64,000 nucleotides of DNA from Alphaproteobacteria bacterium. Lineage in GTDB: Bacteria; Pseudomonadota; Alphaproteobacteria; JBKEAR01. Both the position numbers and the translations under genes were made by a program. Below the pieces are notes generated by a model. That model did not search any database. It saw only the letters and a program-made list of their open reading frames with translations, and was not told the DNA's origin. Below, one piece after another: positions 1 through 62,030 of this stretch (positions within the stretch are counted from its first letter, which is position 1; each line of letters starts with the position of its first letter). The DNA lies in contig JBKEAR010000003.1 in NCBI GenBank assembly GCA_047972425.1, forward strand, positions 166,422 through 230,421, in the 5' to 3' direction.

Positions 1-254
1 TCTCCGGCAAAAGGAACATTATCTTTCGGAACAGATAAAAAAACCATACCTATAAATTCATTACTTTTCTTTGTTGTTATAGCAAATGCATACGGTTTTT
101 TTCGAAAATTATTCCAATAAATAGTGTCTTCTTCTAAATTGCATATGTTCGGGAAATAACGCATTACATCTTTATCCATGTTCATTTCATGAAAGAAGCT
201 TTCATCGGCATCGATTAATGGTCGCAAAGTTAAACGGTTTGTATGAATAATCAT
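1..254 (-). CDS. GNAT-family N-acetyltransferase (RimJ/RimL-like), 5' part only; runs off window start
   Basis: Minus-strand translation from ATG at 252-254: MIIHTNRLTLRPLIDADESFFHEMNMDKDVMRYFPN..., typical GNAT/RimL N-terminus. GGAGGG SD lies upstream. Not in ORF track because it is truncated by the window edge. Confidence 0.5.
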   Translation of the reverse strand, partial: MIIHTNRLTLRPLIDADESFFHEMNMDKDVMRYFPNICNLEEDTIYWNNFRKKPYAFAITTKKSNEFIGMVFLSVPKDNVPFAG

Positions 255-267
255 CTTTCCCTCCAAA

Positions 268-300
268 TAAAAAGCTCCCCAAAAGGGGAGCCTTTAGCAA
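268..300 (-). terminator. Rho-independent terminator downstream of rpsU
   Basis: Hairpin AGCTCCCC-aaaa-GGGGAGC flanked by an A run on + (a T run on the - strand), immediately 3' of rpsU. Confidence 0.5.
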
Positions 301-320
301 ACTAGTGTAAACGTTAATGC

Positions 321-524
321 TTAGAAACCTTCACGTTCTACGCGTTTACGTTCAAGCTTACGGGCACGACGAACAGCTTCTGATTTCTCACGAGCTTTCT
401 TTTCCGAAGGCTTTTCAAAATGACGACGAAGCTTCATTTCTCTAAAAATGCCCTCACGTTGCATTTTCTTTTTAAGAACTTTTAAAGCTTGGTCTACATT
501 ATTATCACGTACGCTAACTTCCAC
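321..524 (-). CDS. rpsU: 30S ribosomal protein S21
   Basis: 67 aa [47 protein letters not shown]... is a near-canonical S21 sequence. Confidence 0.92.
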
Positions 525-734
525 GAGTTATCGCCACCTTTCAAATTTAAGATTTGTATATGAAAATCATATACATAAATATTCAGCATTATTGCTAAGG
601 TGCTTAATATAACATGAATATTTAATATTGCAAGATGGAATCATCAAACAAGGTTATTCTCTTTTAAAAACTTATCGACAAAAGTTATAAAGCCATATAT
701 CTTGTTATATATAAAATATATTTGGAGGATAGCA

Positions 735-1130
735 ATGATTGACCATATAAGCAGCTATACAACCGATTATGAAAATGCCAAAAATTTTTACGAAAAAACC
801 TTTGCCCAATTGGGTTATATGTTGCAAGTAGAGCTTGTTGCCGAATGGAATACGGATTTCCCAACCCAAAGAATGTGTGCATTTGGTATAGATAAACCAA
901 CATTTTGGCTGATTGAAACAAATGAAGCTGCAACACCAAGGCATATTGCTTTTATTGCAAAAACCCGTGCAGATGTTGATGCTTATTATAAAGAGGCCAT
1001 GGCAATAGGTGCAAAAGATAATGGTGCGCCGGGTTTGCGCCCCCATTATCACGAAAATTATTATGGGGCATTTGTATTTGACCCCGATGGAAATAATGTA
1101 GAGGCTGTCTGCCATTGTCCGAATGGTTAA
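735..1130 (+). CDS. VOC/glyoxalase-bleomycin resistance family protein
   Basis: 131 aa from the internal ATG at 735, preceded by GGAGGAT SD at 724-730. The ORF is open from 702. Small VOC-fold-like protein. Confidence 0.6.
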   Translation: MIDHISSYTTDYENAKNFYEKTFAQLGYMLQVELVAEWNTDFPTQRMCAFGIDKPTFWLIETNEAATPRHIAFIAKTRADVDAYYKEAMAIGAKDNGAPGLRPHYHENYYGAFVFDPDGNNVEAVCHCPNG

Positions 1131-6061: not shown

Positions 6062-6210
6062 AATTTTATGCTCCTTTTTAAGCAAACATTATGTTACCCC
6101 TAATGGGCGTAACGGATTAATATATGTGTAAACTCGAATATTTCGACATTTACAGCTTTCTCTATCCATATAGTCTGCAAAAAAAGCTTTCGCAATAAGT
6201 GAGTTATAAA

Positions 6211-6240
6211 AATAAAAAACCCTGCTAAAAAGCAGGGCTT
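6211..6240 (-). terminator. Rho-independent terminator downstream of rpmE
   Basis: CCCTGCT-aaaaa-AGCAGGG hairpin with a T run on the minus strand. Confidence 0.5.
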
Positions 6241-6264
6241 AATAATAATATCTGATTATTTGGC

Positions 6265-6489
6265 TTATTTAATATCAAAGCCTTTAAAACGCTTACGGAA
6301 GCGGGCCAACTGACCACTATTTTCCATTAAACGTTGAACACCAGTCCAAGCCGGATGAGATTTAGAATCGATGTCTAACTTCATAACATCGCCTTCTTTA
6401 CCCCAAGTTGAACGGGTTGTGTATGTAGAACCATCTGTCATTTGAACAGTGATTTCATGATAATCAGGATGGATATCTTTTTTCATCAT
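6265..6489 (-). CDS. rpmE: 50S ribosomal protein L31
   Basis: [30 protein letters not shown]... matches L31. The true start is probably the second Met at 6486. Confidence 0.88.
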
Positions 6490-6636
6490 CGCACTCCAAT
6501 AAATTCTTGAAACAGCTTTATATGCCAGCTTTAAGGAAAATGCAAGAAAAAAGATACTATTGAGCTAATCTAAACTTGCAATATTGGTTATTCGGCTTAA
6601 TATTTAAGAAAAGTAACGTAAAGGAAAAGAAAAGAA

Positions 6637-6924
6637 ATGTCTTTTAATATTGAGTCTGAAAAACTACTTATTGATTTGTTTAATCAGCTTGATGCGCTTT
6701 ATGGCGATGATGCTGATATTGATGAGGATGGAGAAAGTTTAACGATTGAATTTGATAATGGCCAAATATGGTTAATCAATATACAATCGCACCATCAAGA
6801 GGTTTGGCTAAGCTCTCCACTCACTGGGGCACATCATTATAAGCTTATGCAAGATAAATGGCTGAATACAAGAGATGATAGTGAATTACACACGGTTCTA
6901 TTAGCAGAACTTTCCTTGGCCTAA
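6637..6924 (+). CDS. cyaY: Frataxin-like iron-sulfur cluster assembly protein CyaY
   Basis: 95 aa with acidic N-terminal helix DDADIDEDGESLTIEFDNGQIWLIN and WLSSPLTGAHHY, the hallmark CyaY/frataxin motif. Confidence 0.8.
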   Translation: MSFNIESEKLLIDLFNQLDALYGDDADIDEDGESLTIEFDNGQIWLINIQSHHQEVWLSSPLTGAHHYKLMQDKWLNTRDDSELHTVLLAELSLA

Positions 6925-6936
6925 CAGGAGATAATC

Positions 6937-11124: not shown

Positions 11125-11826
11125 ATGGCAACAACAAAGATTCGTATACATGGAACATCTTATCCGATACGCACTGCCGATGGGCAAGAGGAGCATGTGC
11201 AAAAATTAGGGCATCGTTTAAATGAGAATGTATTTAATTTAAGCGAGCGGCTGGCTGGTGCGGATAAAGAATATTTGCTTGTTTTAGCATCTATCATGGT
11301 TCTGGATGAAATGAGTGAGCTAGAGAATACCCCAAAACAAATAGAGCAAGAACTGGATGAATATAAAGATAAGCTTCTTGATACACAGAATCATGTGGAG
11401 GCTTTAAAACTCCAACTCGAAAAATATGATGATGCAGTTATAGAAGAAGAAAAAAAAGCAGCAATTGAAGAAGCACGGCAATTTTTTGCCGATGAACAGG
11501 ATTTAAAATTTAGAGAACAACGGGAATTATACGAAAAACAAATAGACGATCTGAAAAACCAAATTATTGAGAATCAAAAGGGCGAGTCTCGCCCCGGCGA
11601 TCTCGAAGATTTGATTGAAAGCAGTCTGAAAAGGCAAGAACAGCAGTTGGTGGCTCAGTTTGATAGCATATTAAAACAGCAGCAACAAAAATATGAGCAA
11701 GAAATTGAAATATTGAAAAAAAGATTAAAAAACAAAGATAACCAGCAAGAAGAACATTTTAGCCTAGAAGTTGATCCCCTATTTGACCGATTAGAAAATA
11801 TTGCCAAACGGGCAGAAAAAGCATAG
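11125..11826 (+). CDS. zapA: Cell division protein ZapA with long coiled-coil C-terminal extension
   Basis: N-terminal IRIHGTSYPIRTADGQEEHVQKLGHRLNENV fits the ZapA fold. Synteny with downstream ssrS and the 5-FCL gene, as in E. coli zapA-ssrS-ygfA. Confidence 0.75.
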   Translation: MATTKIRIHGTSYPIRTADGQEEHVQKLGHRLNENVFNLSERLAGADKEYLLVLASIMVLDEMSELENTPKQIEQELDEYKDKLLDTQNHVEALKLQLEKYDDAVIEEEKKAAIEEARQFFADEQDLKFREQRELYEKQIDDLKNQIIENQKGESRPGDLEDLIESSLKRQEQQLVAQFDSILKQQQQKYEQEIEILKKRLKNKDNQQEEHFSLEVDPLFDRLENIAKRAEKA

Positions 11827-11834
11827 TATGAGTT

Positions 11835-11995
11835 TAAAGCTGCTACGGGGTACGTTAGCTATTTCTTCCCCGGGCCCTATTATCCACACGGGAGCTGTCA
11901 CTGTGAGAATCGTGGTTCTTTTATACGGCACCCACCTGCACATAATGCAGGCCAGGTGGTAAAGGAAATCGACGGCTTCCGTGGCAGCGAAAGTT
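11835..11995 (+). ncRNA. ssrS: 6S RNA (SsrS)
   Basis: About 160-nt non-coding gap between zapA and 5-formyltetrahydrofolate cyclo-ligase, the conserved ssrS locus. The terminal segments GCTGCTACGG and CCGTGGCAGC are complementary and form the closing stem. The interior is GC-rich compared with its surroundings. Confidence 0.65.
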
Positions 11996-26455: not shown

Positions 26456-27796
26456 ATGGAACGGAAATATTTTGGAACCGATGGAATAAGAGGCAAGGCC
26501 AATCAATATCCGATGACAGCCGAAGTTGCTTTAAAAACTGGTATGGCTGCGGCTAAGTTTTTTGTTCGCGGGGATCATCGTCACCAAGTTGTTATCGGCA
26601 AAGACCCTAGATTATCGGGCTATATGTTAGAGCAAGCCTTAACCGCCGGTTTTTTATCTATGGGTATGAATGTTATTTTGGTTGGGCCAATCCCTACACC
26701 GGGTATTGCAATGCTTACACGAGCATTAAGGTGCGATTTGGGGGTAATGATTTCGGCATCGCATAACCATTATACCGATAACGGTATTAAGCTTTTTGGT
26801 CCCGATGGTCATAAGCTAAGCGATGAAGCCGAGATGAAGATTGAATCACTCATTGAAACTATTTGTGATTCCGATTTGGTATCGGGTGATAAATTAGGCC
26901 GAGCAACCCGTTTAGATGATGTACTTGGCCGTTATATCGAATTTGCCAAACAAACATTCCCTAAAGATTTGCGCCTTGATGGCTTACGAGTTGTTATAGA
27001 TTGCTCCAATGGTGCCGCCTATAAGGCAGCGCCAAGTATTTTATTTGAGCTTGGTGCCGAGGTTATTGCCATTGGTGTATCGCCAAATGGGCAAAATATT
27101 AATGATGGTGTGGGCTCAACCGCGCCTAAAAAAATGCAAGATGCGGTTGTGGAATATCGTGCAGATATTGGTATTGCCCTTGATGGTGATGCGGATCGGG
27201 TGATTATATCCGATGAAAAAGGGCAGATTATTGATGGTGATCAGCTTATGGCAACAATTGCGCTAAATATGAAAGAGCAAGGCCTATTAAAAAATAATGC
27301 TCTTGTGGCAACAGTAATGTCTAATTTGGGCTTAGAGCGCTTATTAGAGGCCAATGGTTTAAAATTGGTTCGTACGGCTGTTGGCGATCGTTATGTAATG
27401 GAAGCCATGAAAGAAGGTGGATATAATATTGGTGGTGAGCAATCGGGGCATATTGTGCTGAGTGATTACTCTACGACTGGCGATGGTACTTTGGCGGCGT
27501 TGCAAATATTATCCATTATGGCTCGAACCCAAAAGAAAGCTAGCTCTGTATGTAATCAATTTACGCCTGTACCCCAAATTTTAAAAAATATACGTTATAA
27601 TAAAGGGGATTCTCCTCTTGATAAAGCCGATATTCAGGCAGAGATTAAAAAATACGAAAAAGAGCTAGAAGGTGAAGGGCGTTTGCTTATCCGAAAATCC
27701 GGAACCGAACCTTTGATTCGTATTATGGTCGAAGGTGATAATGCCAAAAAAATAAAAAAGATTGCCGATGCACTTGCTGCAAAAATTATAGGGTAA
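26456..27796 (+). CDS. glmM: Phosphoglucosamine mutase GlmM
   Basis: [16 protein letters not shown], active-site [20 protein letters not shown]. Confidence 0.95.
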
Positions 27797-27802
27797 TCTT
27801 AA

Positions 27803-28126
27803 TTGGCATGGATATATTTAATTTTGGCTGGCTGTTTCGAGATAGGCTGGCCACTAGGTTTTAAACTTTCTCAGCTCTATGATAACTTTAAGATTGCCGG
27901 TATCTTAATGGCCATTATCTGTATGGCGATTAGTGGATTATTTTTATGGCTGGCTCAATAAACAATCCCAATTGGAACCGCCTATGCAATATGGACAGGA
28001 ATTGGCGCAGCAGGAACATTTTTAATCGGTGTTTGGTATTTTGGTGATACTTCTTCGTTATTAAGATATTTTGGAGTTTTCTTAATTATCTCGGGTGTTA
28101 TTGTTTTAAAACTTGCCCCCCATTAA
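27803..28126 (+). pseudogene. sugE: SugE/Gdx-type small multidrug resistance (SMR) transporter gene interrupted by a single in-frame TAA at 27959-27961
   Basis: TTG start at 27803. The 5' half encodes MAWIYLILAGCFEIGWPLGFKLSQ...LFLWLAQ, including the conserved membrane Glu. The in-frame stop sits where SMR homologs have Lys/Gln. The 3' half in the same frame continues [24 protein letters not shown]...[12 protein letters not shown], ending at 28126. Neither half is in the ORF track because each is under 60 aa. Confidence 0.6.
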
Positions 28127-28154
28127 TTATATTGGGCAAAAAGTAACAAATAAA

Positions 28155-28730
28155 TTACTCTATTACAGCTAAAGTTGCAGGGTCTGGTAATCCAATAGGT
28201 TTTGGCGGTGGCGATATAATATCGGTTGCTTCTACTGTAACAACCTCTTGCACAATAGCTTCGCCATCAGCACGGCAATCTACTGCATATAAATCGTAAA
28301 GTTGGTGCTCAAATGGAGAAAGGGAGGGAGCCGATGCAAACATCCAGCCCGAAAAAACATTATTTTGCGAACTGCGTTCTTTAACCTTTAAAAATATACC
28401 GCTTTCCGGGATATACTCTGGGGGTCTTTCTTGGCAAGAAAATACCGATATTTCTAAATCCTCAAATGATTGTGTTTCATTAACTTTAATTGTTAATTGG
28501 CTCGATCTCCCCGAAACCTTATTAAGCGCCTTAAGTATGGCAACATCTTTTTTAATAACAGGTGGAGAATCAGAACCTTGCTCAGCAATAATTTCACCCA
28601 AATTATCATTGGCTTGAACTTGGGGTTCAGTTTGCCCGGCGATGATATCATCTAAATCATCGGCAAACCCATTATACGCAAAACCACCCATTACAGCGAT
28701 TGTTAATAACTGATAAAATTTTTGATGCAT
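28155..28730 (-). CDS. DUF2155 domain protein (signal peptide)
   Basis: Conserved alphaproteobacterial partner of NDUFA12-like proteins. Start taken at the Met at 28730, 4 nt after the upstream gene stop. The ORF is open to 28760. Confidence 0.55.
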   Translation of the reverse strand: MHQKFYQLLTIAVMGGFAYNGFADDLDDIIAGQTEPQVQANDNLGEIIAEQGSDSPPVIKKDVAILKALNKVSGRSSQLTIKVNETQSFEDLEISVFSCQERPPEYIPESGIFLKVKERSSQNNVFSGWMFASAPSLSPFEHQLYDLYAVDCRADGEAIVQEVVTVEATDIISPPPKPIGLPDPATLAVIE

Positions 28731-29645: not shown

Positions 29646-32600
29646 ATGCGTATTGAGCGGAGCTTTACAAAGAGAGATCAAAATCCGTATGATTTAATTG
29701 AATTCATTAAAACGAATAGTGAGATTCGAAATCCGGATGGTTCAGTTGTGTTTCAGGCCAAAAATTTTGAAGTACCGAAACAATGGTCACAAGTTGCTGC
29801 AGATATCATTGCGCAAAAATACTTTCGGCGGGCTGGGATTCCGGCTTATTTAAAAAAAGTAGAAGAAGATGGGATTCCTACTTGGCTCCAACGCTCAGAG
29901 CCTGATAATGCACGCTTAAAAGAATTACCCAAAGCAGAACGCTTGATTGGTGAGACATCAGCACAGCAAGTATTTGACCGCTTGGCAGGTACTTGGACTT
30001 ATTGGGGTTATAAAAACAATTATTTTAATACCGAAGAAGATGCCCATGCTTTTTTTGATGAAATGCGCTATATGCTTGCAATGCAAATGGGTGCACCGAA
30101 CTCTCCGCAATGGTTTAATACCGGTTTACATTGGGCTTATGGTATTGATGGGCATTCGCAAGGACATTATTATGTTGATCCCCAAACCCAAAAATTAGTA
30201 AAATCTAAATCAGCCTATGAGCATCCACAGCCCCATGCATGTTTTATCCAAAGCGTGAATGATGATTTAGTCAATGAGGGCGGTATTATGGATTTATGGG
30301 TACGTGAGGCCCGTTTATTCAAATATGGCTCGGGTACAGGCTCTAACTTCTCTAATATCCGTGGTGAGGGCGAAAGTCTATCGGGTGGTGGAAAATCATC
30401 GGGTTTAATGAGCTTTTTAAGTGTGGGCGATCGGGCAGCGGGTGCTATTAAATCGGGCGGGACAACACGCCGTGCCGCCAAAATGGTGATTGTAAATGTG
30501 GATCACCCCGATATTGAACAATTTATCAATTGGAAAGTACGCGAAGAACAAAAAGTAGCTGCTTTAGTGGCTGGTTCTAAAGCAACCCATGCAGCATTAA
30601 ATAAAATTGTTGCGGCTTGCCGTGATTCGGATACCGAAGATTTATTTTCACAAAATGCCTATGACCCTAAAGTGAACCGCAAATTACGCCGCGCAATTTT
30701 AGATGCACGCTCTGCTATGGTTCCCGAAAATTATATTCAACGGGTTATCAAAATGGCTGAGATGGGTGTTGAAAAAATCGACTTTCCAACCTTTAATACC
30801 GATTTTACATCCGAAGCTTATATAACGGTTGCCGGGCAAAATTCTAATAACTCTATTCGGGTAACCGATGATTTTATGCATGCGGTTAATCAAGATAAAG
30901 CTTGGTATTTAACCTCGCGGATAGACGGTAGTGTCGTTAAAGAAATTTCGGCTAAAAGCTTATGGGAAGATGTCGGCTATGCTGCTTGGGCTTGTGCTGA
31001 CCCGGGTATTCAGTTTGATACAACCATTAACGATTGGCACACATGCCCGCAATCGGGGCCGATTAATGGCTCTAACCCTTGTTCGGAATATATGTTTTTA
31101 GACGATACAGCATGTAATTTAGCATCGTTAAATCTTGTGGCTTTTCAAAAAGAAGATGGCTCGTTAGATATTGAAGCTTATACCCATGCCGTACGTTTAT
31201 GGACCATTGTATTAGAGCTTTCTGTTGTTATGGCGCAATTTCCTTCTAAAGAGATTGCAAAGCTTTCTTATAAATTCCGTACAACCGGTTTAGGTTATGC
31301 CAATTTAGGCGGTTTTTTAATGTCGGCTGCCATTGCTTATGATTCTGATGAAGCCCGTGCCTTTACGGGAGCTGTAACGGCTTTATTAACTGGTATTGCC
31401 TATAAAACTTCGGCCGAAATGGCAGGGGAACAAGGGGCTTTTGAGGGGTATGCGGAAAATAAAAATGATATGCTCCGTGTCATGCGTAATCATCGCCGTG
31501 CTGCCTATGGCGAAAAAGATGGTTACGAAAACTTACACATCAAACCATTAGCGATTAACCAAGCCGAAGTTAAAGATAAGAGCTTACTTAAAGCTGCCCA
31601 AGCATCGTGGGATGCCGTGATTGAGCTTGGAGAGCAACATGGCTATAGGAATGCCCAAGTTTCGGTTATTGCGCCTACAGGTACTATCGGCCTAGTGATG
31701 GATTGCGATACAACGGGTGTTGAACCGGATTATGCTTTAGTTAAATTTAAAAAACTTGTGGGCGGTGGATATTTTCGTATTATTAACCAACGGGTACCTG
31801 TAGCCTTAAAACGCTTAGGTTATAGTAAAGAAGCAATCAATGATATTATTAAATATGCCGTTGGTTATGGCAGCTTAAAATCATCACCAACCATCAACTA
31901 TAATAATCTTGAAGAAAAAGGATTTGGCCATAAGCAAATTGAAGCTTTAGAGGTTACCTTAAAAGATGCTTTTGATATCCGTTTTGTATTTAATAAATGG
32001 ACATTAGGTGAAGGCTTTATTACCGAAACTTTGGGTGTGGACAAAAACTTATTGGATGACCCAAGTTTTGATTTACTTAAGCATTTAGGTTTCTCTAAAT
32101 CAGAAATCGATATAGCCAATAACCATGTTTGCGGTACAATGACAGTTGAAGGAGCACCCCATTTAAGAGATGAGCATTTGCCTGTTTTTGATTGTGCAAC
32201 CCCATGCGGGCGTATCGGCAAGCGTTTCCTTTCGGCTGAGGCACATATTTTACTAATGGCATCAGCACAGCCATTTATCTCTGGTGCGATTTCTAAAACA
32301 GTGAATATGCCGGCAAATAGTACGATTGATGAATGTTTAAAAGCTTACGAACTTTCTTGGGAAACCGGAATTAAAGCCAACGCACTTTATCGGGATGGTT
32401 CTAAATTATCGCAACCATTATCGGCGGTAGCTTTAGATGATGAAACAGATGACGAAGAATTAAAAGCTGCTGAAGTTGCCGAGTTACCCCAGCCGGATCA
32501 GGCTGTATATATTGCACAAAAACAAGTGAGCCAAATTTGGAAGCCAAAACGTATTCAACCACCATCGCGCCGTAAAGGTTATACCCAAAAAGCCCGGGTG

Positions 32601-61683: not shown

Positions 61684-61759
61684 GGGTGGTTAGCTCAGCT
61701 GGGAGAGCGACTGGTTTACACCCAGTAGGTCAGCGGTTCGATCCCGTTACCACCCACCA
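61684..61759 (+). tRNA. tRNA-Val (anticodon TAC)
   Basis: GGGTGGTTAGCTCAGCTGGGAGAGC D-arm. Anticodon loop TTTACAC. GGTTCGATCC T-loop. ACCACCCACCA end. Confidence 0.85.

Positions 61760-61854: not shown

Positions 61855-61931
<77 letters not shown>

Positions 61932-61953: not shown

Positions 61954-62030
<77 letters not shown>

Follow-up and report, generated by a model that had tools for sequence, protein, structure and literature searches.

A probable recent nonsense pseudogene of a Gdx/SugE-type SMR transporter directly after glmM in uncultured Alphaproteobacteria

Gdx proteins are antiporters that exchange two protons for one guanidinium ion, and control of their genes by a guanidine riboswitch is frequent but not obligatory. 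The closest described system to the locus reported here is Gdx-Clo from Clostridiales oral taxon 876, for which several structures are available (6WK5, 6WK8 and 6WK9). The essential features of Gdx-Clo are the central Glu13, a hydrogen-bond stack formed by W16, S42 and W62, the Tyr59 switch and a Gly-Ile-Gly fulcrum in TM3; SMR transport needs the tyrosine switch of TM3, Trp62 and the GXG fulcrum, while dimerisation proceeds mainly through TM4 (PMC9574504).

We examined a reading frame of this type in a 64-kb stretch of alphaproteobacterial DNA, which we refer to as a whole as the window. Like Gdx-Clo, which has 105 aa, the conceptual product of 107 aa has a layout of four TM segments, and W16/S42/W62 and Tyr59 of Gdx-Clo correspond to its W16/S44/W64 and Y61. 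In contrast, the column that holds Lys in Gdx-Clo holds a TAA at codon 53 of the window copy, from which only TM1 and TM2 can be made. The window copy also differs from both Gdx-Clo and E. coli Gdx/SugE in that it lacks a guanidine riboswitch and starts 6 nt past glmM: no such riboswitch reached the Rfam gathering score in the 64-kb window, and the short gap is all that separates the glmM stop codon from the TTG start. The EmrE and Qac exporters share the Pfam family, the fold and the central glutamate with the window frame, but the match to EmrE is much weaker, with an alignment that begins only at residue 16–18.

We interpret the locus, with a probability of roughly 0.9, as a recent nonsense pseudogene of a Gdx/SugE-type SMR transporter. 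It is a pseudogene of the ordinary kind, and the gdx gene in question is clade-specific and appears to be dispensable. The frame ends a plus-strand series ftsH-folP-glmM-SMR and is followed by the convergent DUF2155 and NDUFA12 genes (Table 1). Translation confirmed a TTG-started SMR frame right after glmM, as the original prediction had stated, and the sequence motifs quoted there were all present in the conceptual product. The proposal that the lesion is a nonsense mutation and not a frameshift was also correct, in that a single frame of 107 codons is interrupted only by the TAA at codon 53.

The list of open reading frames contains only the 52-aa N-terminal piece of this frame. The C-terminal half is predicted to be untranslated, because reading of the sequence found no ATG, GTG or TTG in frame within it; its separate translation was considered and rejected on this ground and because no Shine-Dalgarno-like sequence lies past the stop. 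A purine-rich AGGG is found inside the 3’ end of glmM, about 9 nt upstream of the SMR TTG, so that expression of the SMR gene probably depends on glmM transcription and on translational coupling. Exact protein matches gave the depositor's accessions MFV0320996 for GlmM and MFV0320999 for the B12-dependent ribonucleotide reductase (nrd). The two numbers between them correspond to two genes, DUF2155 and NDUFA12, and none is left for an SMR protein; the locus was thus presumably annotated as a pseudogene, or left without annotation, by the depositor.

Table 1. Features of the SMR locus and its immediate neighbours, in window coordinates.
Feature	Coordinates	Strand	Description	Basis
Whole gdx/sugE-type SMR pseudogene (probable)	27803..28126	+	107 codons plus terminal TAA; codon 53 interrupted	Translation, PF00893, Gdx-Clo match, in-place intact orthologues
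TTG start codon	27803..27805	+	6 nt past the glmM stop (27794–27796)	Sequence
Residual 52-codon ORF, TM1–TM2 only	27803..27961	+	Glu13, Trp16 and Ser44 retained	ORF list, Pfam profile positions 1–49, Gdx-Clo alignment
Premature TAA, codon 53, TM2–TM3 loop	27959..27961	+	Present in all four Logan run assemblies	
C-terminal 54 codons (TM3–TM4)	27962..28123	+	Tyr61 switch, Trp64, G66-I67-G68 fulcrum, TM4 dimerisation helix	Pfam profile positions 52–93
Trp16 polymorphic site	27850	+	G in the window; A in SRR30067232, changing TGG to TGA, a second nonsense codon	
Three linked polymorphic sites	28045, 28049, 28057	+	Gly81 synonymous, Thr83/Ala missense, Ser85 synonymous	
glmM (phosphoglucosamine mutase), upstream gene	26456..27796	+	446 aa, TAA stop	Pfam, source name
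Convergent DUF2155 gene	28155..28730	-	Downstream bound of the locus	Gene calls, Pfam PF09923

The bridged 107-aa product matched PF00893 (Multi_Drug_Res) with 74.5 bits against a cut-off of 23.7 (E = 9.7e-21, covering profile positions 1–93 of 93). Taken separately, the two halves also scored above the gathering threshold, with 25.4 bits for the N-terminal and 41.7 bits for the C-terminal one. Judged by these scores, the match is far beyond chance. An uninterrupted ORF of about 105–110 aa with four TM segments is not present, since TAA occupies codon 53, and we read the frame as a member of the SMR family by descent, not as an intact gene. A database of 5.8 billion clusters yielded 5491 homologues, nearly all of them 104–109 aa long and the best of them 81% identical. 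For many of these, the top ones included, the source records use the name SugE or guanidinium exporter; NCBI labels the intact relatives described below simply as ‘DMT family transporter’ or ‘multidrug efflux SMR transporter’.

The highest-scoring solved structure was Gdx-Clo (6WK5/6WK8), with 67.9 bits over residues 1–104, compared with about 30 bits for EmrE. The conceptual product contains all of the key residues of Gdx-Clo (E13, W16, S44, Y61, W64 and G66-I67-G68), of which Y61, W64 and the GIG motif lie downstream of the premature stop. The similarity of the 107-aa product to SMR proteins is thus significant, and the sugE/gdx assignment made in the original prediction is borne out both by PF00893 and by the difference between the Gdx-Clo and EmrE scores. 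The NCBIfam models were less generous: the SugE equivalog NF008512 gave 76.7 bits against a cut-off of 126 and the best model, NF000280, gave 139.4 bits against 200, neither cut-off being reached, while the Qac and EmrE models gave 25–44 bits against cut-offs of 160–226. Because the SugE and NF000280 cut-offs were missed, we keep to ‘SMR family, Gdx/SugE-like’ as the safe label and treat guanidinium as the presumed substrate.

Intact copies of the gene were found in place in three relatives, one of them a sister lineage (L086) and two more distant (L001 and L085). L086 (SRR30067259), which is 86.7% identical to the window at the nucleotide level over 7.3 kb, has an uninterrupted SMR frame of 107 codons, which opens with TTG and reads CAG (Gln) at position 53. 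L001 (MAG VLC_070, protein P0003), with a GlmM that is 88% identical and a nucleotide identity of about 74–75%, encodes an intact 107-aa protein, also from a TTG start, and has AAG (Lys) at codon 53. L085 (protein P0001; about 75% nucleotide identity) likewise has AAG, and its ATG start lies two codons further upstream. The amino-acid identities of the three SMR proteins to the window product are 92% for L086, 75% for L001 and 81% for L085. As in the window, all three orthologues lie between glmM, which they directly follow, and the convergent DUF2155 gene, and the TTG start is at the same spot in the window, L086 and L001. They differ from the window copy in their sense codon at position 53 and in their uninterrupted frame of 107–109 aa, so that the alignment to orthologues suggested with the original prediction did find CAG or AAG in the intact in-place copies.

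The more specific claim about codon 53 held only in part. Homologues do have K, R or Q at this position, but the single-base difference from TAA that had been described does not apply to the nearest relatives, since both CAG and AAG are two bases away from it; a one-base route to TAA would have passed through CAA or AAA. The frame of L086 (L086:4348-4671) was itself called as 72 aa only, the gene caller having passed over the conserved TTG in favour of an ATG within the frame, at codon 36, and databases may therefore hold N-terminally truncated SMR entries for this clade.

In another sister lineage, represented by L087 and L090 (SRR32022552 and SRR32022541; about 86–87% nucleotide identity), the SMR gene is absent. 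Here 104 bp stand in place of window positions 27778–28169, and the junction is identical in both contigs. In this replacement segment (L087:3649-3752, the same in L090), a T-run comes after a perfect hairpin, AACTTCTCTAA-TGA-TTAGAGAAGTT, an arrangement that resembles an intrinsic terminator directly after glmM; no comparable terminator-like site was found in the window between the SMR frame and DUF2155. The lineages of the window, L086 and L087 are nearly equidistant, with identities of 85.5–86.9% and with 46, 36 and 31 informative sites for the three possible pairings. We considered a common origin of the TAA and the L087 deletion and rejected it, given this near equidistance and a dN/dS of the SMR frame (see below) that is incompatible with a stop of such age. 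As the stop is much younger than the split of the three lineages, stop and deletion would be independent events.

Outside this group, none of 79 other glmM loci (0/79; GlmM at most about 67% identical) had an SMR gene within 4 kb, and among 92 loci SMR similarity was detected only in the window species, L086, L085 and L001. The adjacency of glmM and the SMR gene is therefore, on this sampling of loci, specific to the clade of the window, and the gene was probably gained at the glmM position by the ancestor of that clade. In the same comparison we observed that L008 (CAVCSV010000009.1), which is titled Limosilactobacillus gorillae, has a GlmM with 60% identity to that of the window and ranks among MAGs of Alphaproteobacteria; mis-binning or contamination may have brought this contig into that assembly.

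The SMR frames of the window and L086 differ at 45 synonymous and 8 nonsynonymous positions. The resulting dN/dS is 0.026 (0.016 upstream of the stop and 0.039 downstream of it), and that of glmM is also 0.026. All 41 of the 41 columns that are invariant among 14 homologues are kept in the window copy, which beyond the stop has no frameshift and no further decay. The frame was thus under purifying selection in the past and, because its dN/dS equals that of glmM and every invariant residue is kept, the stop is on this evidence recent. When the eight amino-acid differences were polarised with L001 and L085, about half fell on the L086 branch, and the window branch has at most three changes: A32, which is ambiguous, Y79 and the haplotype-specific T83. 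The neutral expectation over the whole branch is about 150 nonsynonymous changes. On a rough estimate from these counts, the frame could have been evolving neutrally for at most a few percent of the interval since the window and L086 lineages diverged.

Within the species, the 324-bp SMR frame contains four SNPs, of which two are synonymous, one is missense and one is nonsense, compared with 19 synonymous and 4 nonsynonymous changes among the 23 coding SNPs of the flanking genes. The direction of this contrast appears to fit relaxed constraint, although it is not statistically significant and comes from four sites only, three of them tightly linked within 13 bp. The linked sites, at 28045–28057, separate the haplotypes of the window and SRR30067233 from the other three and may represent a single event; at the missense site the window has Thr83, and Ala83 is ancestral. 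The nonsense SNP, TGA at the essential Trp16 in SRR30067232, is a notable sign in the same direction, though it comes from one Logan assembly. Clusters of synonymous SNPs were also seen elsewhere, with six in a 28-bp stretch of glmM (26569–26596) in SRR30067235 and, in both SRR30067232 and SRR30067234, five in a 22-bp stretch of the ribonucleotide reductase gene (30143–30164). Such clustering suggests short tracts of recombination or gene conversion, not independent mutations, and the trio at 28045–28057 may have arisen in the same way. Because of the second stop at Trp16 in one haplotype and the outright deletion in a sister lineage, the SMR gene appears to be dispensable in the clade. Recent pseudogenisation, one of the options left by the original prediction, thus draws support from the intact orthologues, the dN/dS of 0.026, the second nonsense codon and the sister-lineage deletion.

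Another of those options was an error of sequencing or assembly, with a sense codon (CAA or AAA) in the true genome and an intact gene. A gene that is otherwise perfectly preserved and whose frame is restored by one base change could be expected on such a reading, and consensus sequences of MAGs can hold errors. However, the exact GlmM protein was found on contigs of four separately assembled Logan runs (SRR30067232-SRR30067235; L081-L084), all of which have TAA at codon 53 and none of which has a gene call at the SMR spot. Over about 7.3 kb these contigs differ from the window at 8–16 sites (0.1–0.2%) and also differ from one another; with the window included, TAA is present on five distinct haplotypes. 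A one-off consensus error cannot explain a stop that is shared by at least five haplotypes, and the stop must be older than the present strain diversity. The run accessions are consecutive and so probably derive from one study or site, possibly the source of the MAG itself, and the sampled population may be narrow. Within it, the TAA allele has reached fixation, being present in all strains of the species that were sampled. Furthermore, long homopolymers, which are prone to systematic errors, are absent from the sequence around the stop, CAATAAACAATCC, and the 5.8 billion clusters contained no intact SMR protein from the species of the window. A scan of JGI metagenomes for either allele (GGCTCAANAAACAATCCCAATTGG) gave no matches, and a search for extra haplotypes through the DUF2155 protein and members of the FolP and GlmM clusters returned only the same four runs and contigs that end short of the locus (L088 and L089). 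We consider the sequencing-error option to be effectively refuted and give it next to no probability. An equally low probability goes to the idea that the 52-aa TM1–TM2 fragment is itself functional, for example as a half-size subunit or as a modulator of another SMR protein. Its start codon, Glu13, Trp16 and Ser44 are kept and the N-terminal ORF could still be translated after glmM, but the tyrosine switch, Trp64, the GXG fulcrum and the TM4 dimerisation helix are all encoded past the stop (PMC9574504). In addition, the haplotype of SRR30067232 cuts even this fragment at codon 16, its exact 52-aa sequence is absent from the protein collection, and the 64-kb window contains no second SMR gene that could pair with it or compensate for the loss. 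A working half-protein is accordingly hardly credible.

More thought is due to the case in which the gene still functions because the TAA is read through or suppressed, whether by leakiness or by a suppressor tRNA encoded outside the window, to give low but sufficient amounts of full-length Gdx. Both halves are in frame and undamaged with all invariant residues in place, constraint against L086 extends past the stop (dN/dS of 0.039, as above), small amounts suffice for transporters, and the stop has persisted through the observed diversification of strains. A low dN/dS is, however, equally expected of a very recent stop, and the stop is not conserved, L086, L001 and L085 having sense codons. 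UAA is the least leaky of the bacterial stop codons. In the window, TAA terminates 42 of the 60 larger genes, glmM included, and in 14 of them it is followed by an A at +4, as it is at codon 53; on the same count we rejected a genome-wide reassignment of TAA. The 64-kb window encodes no suppressor tRNA, its only tRNAs being Leu(tag), Val(tac) and two Asp(gtc). No stable RNA structure was found past the stop: the 111 nt around and after it folded less stably than shuffled sequences (z = +1.68), with 196 of 200 shuffles at least as stable, and no riboswitch or other regulatory RNA was found near the SMR frame. Finally, given the Trp16 stop and the sister-lineage deletion, selection to keep Gdx function looks absent. 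Neither the tRNAs of the window, nor its TAA usage, nor the RNA fold lent any positive support to the readthrough that the original prediction had allowed for, and we regard it as very unlikely. There is a correspondingly slim chance that the TAA allele is kept as a non-null allele, through readthrough in the TAA-A context or a tRNA gene outside the window, and yields a small and perhaps condition-dependent amount of full-length Gdx. If true, this would explain the undamaged frame on several haplotypes and would make the locus a rare example from nature in which a bacterial transporter is produced despite a UAA stop in its gene.

We therefore return to the recent nonsense pseudogene as the best explanation and propose the following course of events. 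The ancestral product would have been a proton-coupled guanidinium exporter, an antiparallel homodimer of subunits with four TM segments. The gene directly follows glmM in this small clade of uncultured Alphaproteobacteria, and its expression was probably due to read-on from ftsH-folP-glmM. In the species of the window a sense codon at position 53 would then have become TAA. Before that change the codon most likely encoded Gln (CAA or CAG), as it does in the nearest relative, and the likely mutation is accordingly C>T at the first codon position. Translation would now stop after TM2, so that TM3, with the tyrosine switch, Trp64 and the Gly-Ile-Gly motif, and the dimerisation helix TM4 are missing. 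Because of this the truncated product should be unable to form a transporter, and we predict a loss of function.

The remainder of the window was surveyed as well. A pseudogene-rich, decaying genome was considered and rejected, as about 87% of the window lies under ORFs of at least 120 aa and the larger gaps are taken up by tRNAs or by small genes that are intact. Judged by eye from their translations, those at 6622–6924 (+), 6086–6936 (-) and 1–760 (-) comprise a CyaY/frataxin-like ORF and the ribosomal proteins L31 and S21, all below the 100-aa ORF cut-off, and a GNAT-like ORF at the left edge is cut by the end of the window. We also observed a 6S/SsrS RNA at 11837–11991 (+) (Rfam RF00013, 54.5 bits against a gathering score of 46.4), directly after a 233-aa ORF at 11125–11826, and a tandem pair of tRNA-Asp(GTC) genes with identical Rfam scores at 61855–61931 and 61954–62030 (+), which follows tRNA-Val(TAC) at 61684–61759.

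An annotation should record here a pseudogene of the SMR/Gdx family with an internal stop; entering two small ORFs, or nothing but intergenic DNA, would be wrong. The import of the finding beyond correct annotation is small, and it opens no long-standing question. It does provide a clean small case of gene loss in progress, with intact, point-stopped and deleted lineages within about 13% nucleotide divergence, and it suggests that guanidinium export is dispensable in these uncultured Alphaproteobacteria.
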